This document shows positions 6,442-12,383 of a stretch of 64,000 nucleotides of DNA, piece after piece. How positions within the stretch are numbered: the first letter of the stretch is position 1; every line of letters starts with the position of its first letter. Source of the DNA: Eledone cirrhosa (taxonomy: Eukaryota). Made by a program: the position numbers and the translations under genes. The notes below the pieces were generated by a model, which had not been told where the DNA came from, ran no database searches, and was given only the letters and a program-made list of their open reading frames with translations. The stretch spans positions 201,066,001-201,130,000 of the forward strand of contig OZ024743.1 in the NCBI GenBank assembly GCA_964016885.1, read 5' to 3'.

Positions 6442-9400
6442 ATAAACGGAAAAAATGAAACGATATTTCATTTCCCACTCTTAGTACGGCTGTTACTTAA
6501 ATATAAGTATGTACACGTACATACATATATGTATACCGACGTACAGTAGTATGTATATATATATATACATACATGCACACATATATATATGCACGTATGG
6601 ATTCACCGAACATTTATTATAATGCTCGGTGTGTTTGTAAACAAACATCCCGTATTAAGCCGTAGTGTCTAGCAACCACCGTTGCTCGTTTGTTCAACAC
6701 TGACAAAGGAACGCTGTACTAGTTTCAAGCTTGTTAGCTATCGTCAGCAACGTATACCTTCCTGCCAGATTGTTGAACGTATATACTTACCTTATGCATA
6801 TTAACGGCTGAGTAGCCCAATATGCATATCGAGTGGGTTAATCGGCCGGGTGCACCGAAAACGATAAACGGAAAAAATGAAACGATATTTCATTTCCCAC
6901 TCTTAGTACGGCTGTTACTTAAATATAAGTATGTACACGTACATACATATATGTATACCGACGTACAGTAGTATGTATATATATATATACATACATGCAC
7001 ACATATATATATGCACGTATGGATTCACCGAACATTTATTATAATGCTCGGTGTGTTTGTAAACAAACATCCCGTATTAAGCCGTAGTGTCTAGCAACCA
7101 CCGTTGCTCGTTTGTTCAACACTGACAAAGGAACGCTGTACTAGTTTCAAGCTTGTTAGCTATCGTCAGCAACGTATACCTTCCTGCCAGATTGTTGAAC
7201 GTATATACTTACCTTATGCATATTAACGGCTGAGTAGCCCAATATGCATATCGAGTGGGTTAATCGGCCGGGTGCACCGAAAACGATAAACGGAAAAAAT
7301 GAAACGATATTTCATTTCCCACTCTTAGTACGGCTGTTACTTAAATATAAGTATGTACACGTACATACATATATGTATACCGACGTACAGTAGTATGTAT
7401 ATATATATATACATACATGCACACATATATATATGCACGTATGGATTCACCGAACATTTATTATAATGCTCGGTGTGTTTGTAAACAAACATCCCGTATT
7501 AAGCCGTAGTGTCTAGCAACCACCGTTGCTCGTTTGTTCAACACTGACAAAGGAACGCTGTACTAGTTTCAAGCTTGTTAGCTATCGTCAGCAACGTATA
7601 CCTTCCTGCCAGATTGTTGAACGTATATACTTACCTTATGCATATTAACGGCTGAGTAGCCCAATATGCATATCGAGTGGGTTAATCGGCCGGGTGCACC
7701 GAAAACGATAAACGGAAAAAATGAAACGATATTTCATTTCCCACTCTTAGTACGGCTGTTACTTAAATATAAGTATGTACACGTACATACATATATGTAT
7801 ACCGACGTACAGTAGTATGTATATATATATATACATACATGCACACATATATATATGCACGTATGGATTCACCGAACATTTATTATAATGCTCGGTGTGT
7901 TTGTAAACAAACATCCCGTATTAAGCCGTAGTGTCTAGCAACCACCGTTGCTCGTTTGTTCAACACTGACAAAGGAACGCTGTACTAGTTTCAAGCTTGT
8001 TAGCTATCGTCAGCAACGTATACCTTCCTGCCAGATTGTTGAACGTATATACTTACCTTATGCATATTAACGGCTGAGTAGCCCAATATGCATATCGAGT
8101 GGGTTAATCGGCCGGGTGCACCGAAAACGATAAACGGAAAAAATGAAACGATATTTCATTTCCCACTCTTAGTACGGCTGTTACTTAAATATAAGTATGT
8201 ACACGTACATACATATATGTATACCGACGTACAGTAGTATGTATATATATATATACATACATGCACACATATATATATGCACGTATGGATTCACCGAACA
8301 TTTATTATAATGCTCGGTGTGTTTGTAAACAAACATCCCGTATTAAGCCGTAGTGTCTAGCAACCACCGTTGCTCGTTTGTTCAACACTGACAAAGGAAC
8401 GCTGTACTAGTTTCAAGCTTGTTAGCTATCGTCAGCAACGTATACCTTCCTGCCAGATTGTTGAACGTATATACTTACCTTATGCATATTAACGGCTGAG
8501 TAGCCCAATATGCATATCGAGTGGGTTAATCGGCCGGGTGCACCGAAAACGATAAACGGAAAAAATGAAACGATATTTCATTTCCCACTCTTAGTACGGC
8601 TGTTACTTAAATATAAGTATGTACACGTACATACATATATGTATACCGACGTACAGTAGTATGTATATATATATATACATACATGCACACATATATATAT
8701 GCACGTATGGATTCACCGAACATTTATTATAATGCTCGGTGTGTTTGTAAACAAACATCCCGTATTAAGCCGTAGTGTCTAGCAACCACCGTTGCTCGTT
8801 TGTTCAACACTGACAAAGGAACGCTGTACTAGTTTCAAGCTTGTTAGCTATCGTCAGCAACGTATACCTTCCTGCCAGATTGTTGAACGTATATACTTAC
8901 CTTATGCATATTAACGGCTGAGTAGCCCAATATGCATATCGAGTGGGTTAATCGGCCGGGTGCACCGAAAACGATAAACGGAAAAAATGAAACGATATTT
9001 CATTTCCCACTCTTAGTACGGCTGTTACTTAAATATAAGTATGTACACGTACATACATATATGTATACCGACGTACATTAGTATGTATATATATATATAC
9101 ATACATGCACACATATATATATGCACGTATGGATTCACCGAACATTTATTATAATGCTCGGTGTGTTTGTAAACAAACATCCCGTATTAAGCCGTAGTGT
9201 CTAGCAACCACCGTTGCTCGTTTGTTCAACACTGACAAAGGAACGCTGTACTAGTTTCAAGCTTGTTAGCTATCGTCAGCAACGTATACCTTCCTGCCAG
9301 ATTGTTGAACGTATATACTTACCTTATGCATATTAACGGCTGAGTAGCCCAATATGCATATCGAGTGGGTTAATCGGCCGGGTGCACCGAAAACGATAAA

Positions 9401-9824
9401 CGGAAAAAATGAAACGATATTTCATTTCCCACTCTTAGTACGGCTGTTACTTAAATATAAGTATGTACACGTACATACATATATGTATACCGACGTACAG
9501 TAGTATGTATATATATATATACATACATGCACACATATATATATGCACGTATGGATTCACCGAACATTTATTATAATGCTCGGTGTGTTTGTAAACAAAC
9601 ATCCCGTATTAAGCCGTAGTGTCTAGCAACCACCGTTGCTCGTTTGTTCAACACTGACAAAGGAACGCTGTACTAGTTTCAAGCTTGTTAGCTATCGTCA
9701 GCAACGTATACCTTCCTGCCAGATTGTTGAACGTATATACTTACCTTATGCATATTAACGGCTGAGTAGCCCAATATGCATATCGAGTGGGTTAATCGGC
9801 CGGGTGCACCGAAAACGATAAACG
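6442..9824 (-). repeat. 8 tandem 422-bp hammerhead-containing units (left arm of palindromic retrozyme-like array; ribozyme sense on minus)
   Basis: aaacggaaaaaatg recurs at 6444, 6866, 7288 ... 9398, with a final partial aaacg at 9820; only one substitution seen (9078 g>t). Confidence 0.97.
6707..6763 (-). ncRNA. type I hammerhead ribozyme (first of 8 minus-strand copies: 6707, 7129, 7551, 7973, 8395, 8817, 9239, 9661)
   Basis: minus strand ACGUUG-CUGACGA-U-AGCU-AACA-AGCU-U-GAAA-CUAG-UA|CAGCGU. Confidence 0.85.
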
Positions 9825-9830
9825 TGTACG

Positions 9831-12383
9831 TGTACGTGTACATACTTATATTTAAGTAACAGCCGTACTAAGAGTGGGAAATGAAATATCGTTTCATTTT
9901 TTCCGTTTATCGTTTTCGGTGCACCCGGCCGATTAACCCACTCGATATGCATATTGGGCTACTCAGCCGTTAATATGCATAAGGTAAGTATATACGTTCA
10001 ACAATCTGGCAGGAAGGTATACGTTGCTGACGATAGCTAACAAGCTTGAAACTAGTACAGCGTTCCTTTGTCAGTGTTGAACAAACGAGCAACGGTGGTT
10101 GCTAGACACTACGGCTTAATACGGGATGTTTGTTTACAAACACACCGAGCATTATAATAAATGTTCGGTGAATCCATACGTGCATATATATATGTGTGCA
10201 TGTATGTATATATATATATACATACTACTGTACGTCGGTATACATATATGTATGTACGTGTACATACTTATATTTAAGTAACAGCCGTACTAAGAGTGGG
10301 AAATGAAATATCGTTTCATTTTTTCCGTTTATCGTTTTCGGTGCACCCGGCCGATTAACCCACTCGATATGCATATTGGGCTACTCAGCCGTTAATATGC
10401 ATAAGGTAAGTATATACGTTCAACAATCTGGCAGGAAGGTATACGTTGCTGACGATAGCTAACAAGCTTGAAACTAGTACAGCGTTCCTTTGTCAGTGTT
10501 GAACAAACGAGCAACGGTGGTTGCTAGACACTACGGCTTAATACGGGATGTTTGTTTACAAACACACCGAGCATTATAATAAATGTTCGGTGAATCCATA
10601 CGTGCATATATATATGTGTGCATGTATGTATATATATATATACATACTACTGTACGTCGGTATACATATATGTATGTACGTGTACATACTTATATTTAAG
10701 TAACAGCCGTACTAAGAGTGGGAAATGAAATATCGTTTCATTTTTTCCGTTTATCGTTTTCGGTGCACCCGGCCGATTAACCCACTCGATATGCATATTG
10801 GGCTACTCAGCCGTTAATATGCATAAGGTAAGTATATACGTTCAACAATCTGGCAGGAAGGTATACGTTGCTGACGATAGCTAACAAGCTTGAAACTAGT
10901 ACAGCGTTCCTTTGTCAGTGTTGAACAAACGAGCAACGGTGGTTGCTAGACACTACGGCTTAATACGGGATGTTTGTTTACAAACACACCGAGCATTATA
11001 ATAAATGTTCGGTGAATCCATACGTGCATATATATATGTGTGCATGTATGTATATATATATATACATACTACTGTACGTCGGTATACATATATGTATGTA
11101 CGTGTACATACTTATATTTAAGTAACAGCCGTACTAAGAGTGGGAAATGAAATATCGTTTCATTTTTTCCGTTTATCGTTTTCGGTGCACCCGGCCGATT
11201 AACCCACTCGATATGCATATTGGGCTACTCAGCCGTTAATATGCATAAGGTAAGTATATACGTTCAACAATCTGGCAGGAAGGTATACGTTGCTGACGAT
11301 AGCTAACAAGCTTGAAACTAGTACAGCGTTCCTTTGTCAGTGTTGAACAAACGAGCAACGGTGGTTGCTAGACACTACGGCTTAATACGGGATGTTTGTT
11401 TACAAACACACCGAGCATTATAATAAATGTTCGGTGAATCCATACGTGCATATATATATGTGTGCATGTATGTATATATATATATACATACTACTGTACG
11501 TCGGTATACATATATGTATGTACGTGTACATACTTATATTTAAGTAACAGCCGTACTAAGAGTGGGAAATGAAATATCGTTTCATTTTTTCCGTTTATCG
11601 TTTTCGGTGCACCCGGCCGATTAACCCACTCGATATGCATATTGGGCTACTCAGCCGTTAATATGCATAAGGTAAGTATATACGTTCAACAATCTGGCAG
11701 GAAGGTATACGTTGCTGACGATAGCTAACAAGCTTGAAACTAGTACAGCGTTCCTTTGTCAGTGTTGAACAAACGAGCAACGGTGGTTGCTAGACACTAC
11801 GGCTTAATACGGGATGTTTGTTTACAAACACACCGAGCATTATAATAAATGTTCGGTGAATCCATACGTGCATATATATATGTGTGCATGTATGTATATA
11901 TATATATACATACTACTGTACGTCGGTATACATATATGTATGTACGTGTACATACTTATATTTAAGTAACAGCCGTACTAAGAGTGGGAAATGAAATATC
12001 GTTTCATTTTTTCCGTTTATCGTTTTCGGTGCACCCGGCCGATTAACCCACTCGATATGCATATTGGGCTACTCAGCCGTTAATATGCATAAGGTAAGTA
12101 TATACGTTCAACAATCTGGCAGGAAGGTATACGTTGCTGACGATAGCTAACAAGCTTGAAACTAGTACAGCGTTCCTTTGTCAGTGTTGAACAAACGAGC
12201 AACGGTGGTTGCTAGACACTACGGCTTAATACGGGATGTTTGTTTACAAACACACCGAGCATTATAATAAATGTTCGGTGAATCCATACGTGCATATATA
12301 TATGTGTGCATGTATGTATATATATATATACATACTACTGTACGTCGGTATACATATATGTATGTACGTGTACATACTTATAT
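9831..12383 (+). repeat. 6 inverted tandem 422-bp hammerhead-containing units (right arm; ribozyme sense on plus)
   Basis: reverse complement of the left unit; ccgttt ends at 9908, 10330 ... 12018; runs into (TA)n after cttatat. Confidence 0.97.
10011..10067 (+). ncRNA. type I hammerhead ribozyme (first of 6 plus-strand copies: 10011, 10433, 10855, 11277, 11699, 12121)
   Basis: CTGACGA at 10027; stem II agct/agct; GAAA; palindromic stem III ACTAGT; predicted GUA cleavage after 10057; stem I acgttg/cagcgt extended by ggaa/ttcc, ctggca/tgtcag and gttcaaca/tgttgaac. Confidence 0.85.

Follow-up and report, generated by a model that had tools for sequence, protein, structure and literature searches.

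Head-to-head arrays of a putative hammerhead retrozyme in (TA)n tracts of Eledone cirrhosa have fixed, paired ends and insert like a non-autonomous Penelope-like element

Metazoan non-long terminal repeat (non-LTR) retrozymes have been described as non-coding units of a few hundred base pairs and low GC content that stand in direct tandem, carry one type I hammerhead ribozyme per unit, form strongly self-paired circles and reach thousands of copies in genomes where Penelope-like elements (PLEs) co-occur (Cervera and de la Pena, 2020, PMC7229834; Li et al., 2026, 10.64898/2026.07.22.740005; here and below, what we take from published work refers to the accessible portions of the papers cited). 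Vertebrate retrozymes have been tied to PLEs by this co-occurrence and by homology to the pseudo-LTR (pLTR) of PLEs (10.64898/2026.07.22.740005), and the movement of retrozymes as circles by means of PLE enzymes has been stated to be an open question (PMC7229834). In this study, we analyze a 14-unit array at positions 6442–12383 of a 64,000-nucleotide stretch of the Eledone cirrhosa genome (assembly GCA_964016885.1, contig OZ024743.1, positions 201,066,001–201,130,000 of the forward strand; hereafter the window, whose numbering we use). The 422-bp unit is, by its sequence features, a non-LTR retrozyme with a predicted self-cleaving hammerhead, and its arrays insert like a non-autonomous PLE.

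In twin priming of the L1 element, primers come from both ends of the target; the two arms are copies of different, neighboring segments of a single RNA, the position of the second site varies, and microhomology joins the cDNAs. The arrays described here share the microhomology joins and, as we argue below, probably the priming from both ends, but each of their two sites is fixed, and one and the same sequence is copied many times over in either arm. The endonuclease-containing (EN+) PLEs also resemble these arrays: their insertions comprise a head-to-head inverted, 5′-truncated copy, a tail of 30–40 bp at one end only, a bias toward (TA)n targets and two internal start sites (Craig et al., 2021, PMC8557442; Arkhipova et al., 2013, PMC3846280; Frangieh et al., 2024, PMC11167929). 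With a purified anole PLE, AT-rich DNA was cleaved and both of its strands were extended; synthesis began at the two internal sites that bound the tail, and the enzyme is predicted to act as a dimer (PMC11167929). The published model for the inverted end of PLEs invokes self-priming on an antisense template (PMC3846280), and the origin of the tandem and inverted structures and of the one-sided tail has been stated to be open (PMC8557442); PMC9977147 contributes no further information on the mechanism.

The focal array consists of 8.02 antisense and 6.05 sense copies of the 422-bp unit with one mismatch in total, in agreement with an earlier note on this DNA that had reported eight plus six inverted, near-identical units in (TA)n. 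We number the unit as a circle whose position 1 is window position 10058, at the predicted cut. The left arm (6442–9824, minus strand, eight hammerheads) follows a (TA)n/(TG)n target tract at 6353–6441 and contains the sole mismatch, at 9078; the right arm (9831–12383, plus strand, six hammerheads) is free of mismatches and runs into a (TA)n target tract at 12384–12526. The arms end at different positions of the circle, as had also been noticed: the outer end is at circle position 275 (RNA site B) on the left and at 216 (RNA site A) on the right, and the inner ends are at 269 and 196, respectively. Six nucleotides between the arms (9825–9830) copy the first bases of the right arm and constitute a templated, microhomology-type join. 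The 59 nt between sites A and B, which can be seen in one unit at 10274–10332 (plus strand), contain a hairpin and form a ‘tail’ that is present at one outer end only. The array has a GC content of 35–39% and holds no transfer RNA and no open reading frame (ORF) of 120 amino acids or more, no LTR-type structure was found at any locus mapped, and the unit circle has a folding energy of –146 kcal/mol (z about –8 relative to 40 shuffles).

Fixed and paired outer ends are the central property of these insertions. We fetched 36 loci around perfect units and mapped their arms; 27 were two-armed and, together with the window, constitute a sample of 28 that is biased toward perfect full units (outside it stand the one-armed L032, L033, L034, L042, L046 and L049, the chimera L041, L048 with its assembly gap and the nested L053; a second palindromic cluster at L059 was left uncounted). 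Each of the 28 young two-armed insertions is head-to-head, with an antisense arm on the left and a sense arm on the right (–/+), and has one end at circle positions 216–219 (A) and the other at 270–275 (B), a pairing with a p of about 4e-9 under independent 50:50 ends. Given this orientation, each arm reads as cDNA primed at the 3′ end of its flank and extended inward, as the earlier note had proposed for the focal locus. The proposal that AT microhomology sets the ends did not survive the survey: sites A and B offer just 3–5 nt of AT match, and the 14-nt TA tract at circle 150–163 serves as outer end for none of the 56 arms. Outer ends adjoin (TA)n across the mapped loci and the junction scans, and target-site duplications are unreadable inside (TA)n.

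The same rule emerged from wider, less biased samples, although the pairing is not invariable and some exceptions are weighed below. Head-to-head junction pairs in C1:1–214 Mb were AB in 17 cases, AA in one and BB in none, and the first 100 ribozyme motifs of C1 included 11 pairs of opposite-strand neighbors with a spacing below 1 kb, all of them –/+ and none +/–. Thirty B-anchored loci taken in genome order, four of which overlap the first sample and two of which duplicate each other, had an A partner in 21 cases and a weak A partner in 2, while 6 were one-armed and 1 was B/B-like; some of the A partners are merely 5–8 nt long and joined by microhomology. In subfamily B, the equivalent end rule is seen in 11 two-armed loci of 30, with a query biased to the B end. 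A genome-wide control scan for priming at the internal TA tract gave 404 and 474 matches over all subfamilies; of the first 70, 28 proved to be simple expansions of the tract.

The inner ends behave in a different way from the outer ones. All 56 are distributed uniformly round the circle (Rayleigh p 0.86), the distances between left and right inner ends are also uniform (Kolmogorov–Smirnov p 0.82), the two ends of a junction being unrelated, and 0 of 56 lie within 5 nt of the ribozyme cut, with no pile-up at that position. Ends that are random, unrelated and never at the cut argue against a fold-back origin of the second arm and against a stop of synthesis at a cleaved 5′ end. The 28 junctions comprise 13 with microhomology, 11 with short and often templated insertions, 2 blunt and 2 unresolved, and these classes may resemble those of polymerase-theta end joining. 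Ends within 7 nt of the cut do occur among the one-armed and second-sample loci (L032, L042, L151, L165 and L176), at about the chance frequency by a hand count.

The likeness to EN+ PLEs extends to the elements of the same genome, which is rich in PLEs combining reverse transcriptase (RT) and GIY-YIG domains. Two RT+GIY-YIG families have (TA)n as their insertion target; all of their head-to-head pairs seen (6/6) combine a short end with a long one, and their tails measure roughly 45–65 nt (the long end at L119 runs beyond the locus); in a divergent PLE-like palindrome at L044, short and long ends could not be scored. The arrays differ from EN+ PLEs in that the unit has no ORF and is thus not an autonomous PLE, and in that the arms are multimeric, with up to ~16 units. 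Their tail is 59 nt long compared with 30–40 in the published elements, their junctions are non-palindromic, and a strict pairing of one site per end, which we counted here, was not found stated for EN+ PLEs in the accessible portions of the three papers (PMC8557442; PMC3846280; PMC11167929).

Several other PLE-like elements were noted. L128:4309–7122 (minus strand) is an open PLE-type ORF of 938 aa with RT and GIY-YIG matches and a minimal hammerhead-like motif upstream, and L130:1775–5062 (plus strand) is an ORF of 1096 aa with an RT match and, from the genome scan, a GIY-YIG match; by sequence, both are candidates for still-active PLEs. In the neighborhoods of PLE ORFs, the ribozyme-like motifs present belonged to other families. 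A divergent family of RT/endonuclease-like ORFs lies near many retrozyme loci (L044, L047, L051, L061, L064 and L065); it had no Pfam match in the three pieces scanned, presumably resembles Hydra-clade PLEs and is a candidate driver. Finally, a small palindromic element of ~160–220 bp occupies 12527–12690, in the same (TA)n tract as the focal array. Copies of it occur in L040, L046, L054, L099, L131 and L171; they pair a short end with a long one and differ in their centers, like PLE stubs.

A hammerhead can be recognized by sequence in 14/14 units. In the type I copy at 10021–10063 (plus strand, predicted cut after 10057), a 6-bp stem I (10021–10026/10058–10063) encloses CUGACGA (10027–10033), a 4-bp stem II (10035–10046) with U.U at its base, GAAA (10048–10051), a minimal and palindromic stem III (ACUAGU) and GUA before the predicted cut. 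All 18 named pairs are kept in 6/6 aligned variants from three subfamilies; in these six, one helix pair occurs as UG, GU or AU, and the only core position that changes is the variable one, with a covariation so weak that 25 of 500 shuffles reach as high. The Rfam check proposed in the earlier note failed: the whole window gave 0 matches at the gathering score, and the 66 matches obtained for 9831–10700 at E≤10 included no hammerhead family, those to microRNA families falling on a TA-rich hairpin far below the gathering score. Since Rfam is silent on the motif, the ribozyme call, which was made by eye, rests on the core motif and helices; these uphold a type I hammerhead in every unit, and the Rfam models do not score it. 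The same U.U at the base of stem II is found in axolotl HHR_Amex2 (PMC7229834).

A genome search with the unit returned at least 337 matches, and the exact ribozyme motif has 22,909 copies over all subfamilies; the focal array is a young copy, one of hundreds in its subfamily, and no rarity. Being non-coding, low in GC, 422 bp long, dispersed in many copies and provided with one hammerhead per unit, the repeat fits the retrozyme type to which it had been assigned. Unit lengths of 422–500 bp slightly exceed the ~170–400 nt of the retrozymes described in 2020, and the published non-LTR retrozymes are described as direct tandems, in contrast to the head-to-head arrays, fixed paired ends and (TA)n targeting seen here (PMC7229834; 10.64898/2026.07.22.740005). 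An older relative from subfamily B lies 43 kb away in the window, at 55503–56638 in (TA)n: its ~446-bp unit is 84% identical, it is palindromic too, with 1.2 units antisense and 1.4 sense, it bears one A-equivalent and one B-equivalent end, and its arms differ at 15/334 sites. A third subfamily (L041, L140 and C1 motif positions) has units of ~465–510 bp with the same ribozyme core and ends. L041:2719–5700 and L118 are chimeras of retrozyme subfamilies joined near the ribozyme, for which recombination and template switching are candidate readings. At L053, a nested insertion or expansion lies inside the unit’s own TA tract (circle 150–163), and the element thus carries its own target. About 100 bp between the two palindromic clusters of L059 (4877–4976) duplicate the right flank, which suggests repriming or copying of flank DNA.

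We consider it probable that these arrays are a non-autonomous hammerhead retrozyme moved in trans by an EN+ PLE that primes from both ends of a (TA)n break. By analogy with other retrozymes, transcripts of the units would cleave themselves, most likely in dimeric form, and the resulting monomers may circularize. A PLE RT/GIY-YIG complex, probably a dimer, would bind the RNA around positions 216–275 and cut both strands of the (TA)n that we observe as the target. Each 3′ end would then prime reverse transcription, one at A and the other at B, 59 nt apart, leaving the fixed paired ends and the orientation observed. Both RTs would pass many cut sites and halt at random, for which rolling on a circle is the simplest route, and the cDNA ends would be joined by microhomology or a short templated insertion into a palindrome of head-to-head arms that bears the tail at a single end; the read-through and the junctions themselves are observed. 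Some arrays would grow later through unequal exchange. In its full form, in which both (TA)n ends are held by an asymmetric PLE dimer and two RTs that start 59 nt from each other on a single circular ribozyme RNA displace each other’s cDNA for up to ~16 turns before end joining, we offer the scheme only tentatively.

Several observations weigh against this proposal. The pairing of ends is broken by an A/A pair (L178), a B/B-like pair (L175) and the two-subfamily chimera L041, which carries two B-type ends; one-armed insertions occur; and exact genome-wide junction counts are unequal, with 1316 for A and 444 for B, an imbalance that may reflect the specificity of the search patterns together with short A-only inserts (L181 and L182). 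A unit-like pLTR was present in none of 50 loci taken from 150 listed GIY-YIG matches, a screen that covered GIY-YIG-matched loci, including 20 larger fetches, but no divergent EN families; the driver PLE is therefore a putative one. The anole enzyme showed no difference in start site between the strands, and uncleaved RNA is its main substrate in vitro (PMC11167929). Arm lengths correlate weakly (rho 0.36, p 0.06), and variants are shared between arms to a modest extent (p 0.06 in subfamily B, and p 0.02 in A, where a single locus drives the signal). At L055, a TA expansion is found in 16 of the 17 units of the right arm and a CpG change runs through its outer 13, and the left arm is of the reference type with neither. 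Such discordant arms with nested variants, which one circle cannot give, point to growth after insertion or to two templates.

L055 is accommodated by a reading that we regard as unlikely, in which the same two-ended PLE priming takes place on an uncleaved linear read-through multimer, or on a separate RNA for each protomer, and later unequal exchange is the main source of the longest arrays, with no rolling circle. The preference of the anole PLE for uncleaved RNA would suit such a template, as would poor cleavage by a ribozyme with U.U at the base of stem II and a minimal stem III: a similar axolotl retrozyme ribozyme was 22% cleaved as a monomer, although better as a dimer (PMC7229834), and 8/9 frog retrozyme dimers failed to cleave (10.64898/2026.07.22.740005). 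However, random truncation of a linear template would shorten arrays at each generation, and mutation-free arms of 8–16 units are common; a fixed 5′ end should collect inner ends, and no pile-up is seen; and at L052 one private TA expansion runs through both arms, in 18 of 19 units. The mutation-free arms and the shared expansion of L052 suit a single circular template, and the arms run across ~221 predicted cut sites and are free of indels at the cut itself, which speaks against end-to-end jumping between cleaved monomers. On balance, we lean slightly toward a circular template, and for the focal locus ‘8 and 6 turns’ of rolling are possible.

One-ended priming followed by self-priming, the fold-back copy making the mirror arm, has been published for rotifer PLEs, in which palindromes occur at the inverted junctions (PMC3846280), but it is very unlikely here. 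Inner ends lie within 30 nt of each other in 4 of 28 junctions, as fold-back would have it, but 4.05 such junctions are expected by chance, and the distances are uniform. Moreover, a folded-back copy should return to the outer site from which it started, and the other fixed site is found in 28/28; the longer arm can also be either one. We rejected this model, as random junctions do not fit self-priming.

A DNA-level origin, by which a satellite would spread either on extrachromosomal DNA circles or by template switches during replication of fragile (TA)n, is highly improbable. (TA)n tracts are break-prone, the junctions are like those of microhomology-mediated repair and arrays can expand in place, but the –/+ polarity, the fixed, paired ends lying away from the longest TA tract, the conserved ribozyme and the occurrence of the same rule in RT-coding PLEs would all be left unexplained. 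That the array is an assembly or amplification chimera is extremely improbable, for although near-identical 6-kb palindromes are difficult to assemble, no long read was seen across the exact locus and its own junction is not among the joints listed for public-run contigs, the same architecture recurs on many contigs with differing junctions (against a one-off chimera, which the earlier note had raised as a risk), the arms of the older copy have diverged, chimeras fold back symmetrically, and opposite-strand joints are present in contigs of X1 (a run that may come from the source sample), together with a loose (TA)n end at 10332 (site B), which recurs in run X8 from a separate study. Low-depth matches in X4 and X5, which belong to other organisms, were set aside as evidence of host range.

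Other repeats share the neighborhood of these arrays. An AT-rich repeat with two recurring end points is present at 51298 and 56765 of the window and at L031, L037, L059 and others, where it often adjoins (TA)n and retrozyme ends. Many near-identical fragments of a long interspersed element RT, open over up to 831 aa and which we take to be RTE-like, lie at 14725–16063, 23108–24727, 42877–43578, 48415–49407, 51485–53980 and 57062–61101. An ORF at L056:908–1444 (minus strand), ~4 kb from a 22-unit array, has what we take to be an IL-17-like cysteine pattern.

The traits of retrozymes and of PLE insertions brought together here were already known, and the palindromic multimer form and the counted pairing of one site per end were not found described. 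Our literature search found no palindromic retrozyme arrays or paired start sites; most subscription papers were outside its coverage, and supplements (such as Fig. S9 of PMC7229834) may bear on novelty. The family offers hundreds of young, nearly mutation-free insertions with countable ends, and these counts favor two-end priming at paired sites over the published self-priming model and tie a retrozyme to PLEs by insertion signature rather than co-occurrence. A 422-nt RNA with two mapped start sites could also go straight into the PLE assay already established in vitro, in linear and in circular form. Thousands of such palindromes could be a source of double-stranded RNA and of DNA fragility in this genome. 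If the double rolling-circle reading is true, the same priming would account for two general features of EN+ PLEs, the inverted pLTR and the tail at one side, and the arrays would be direct genomic evidence that animal circular RNAs are retrotransposed as circles.

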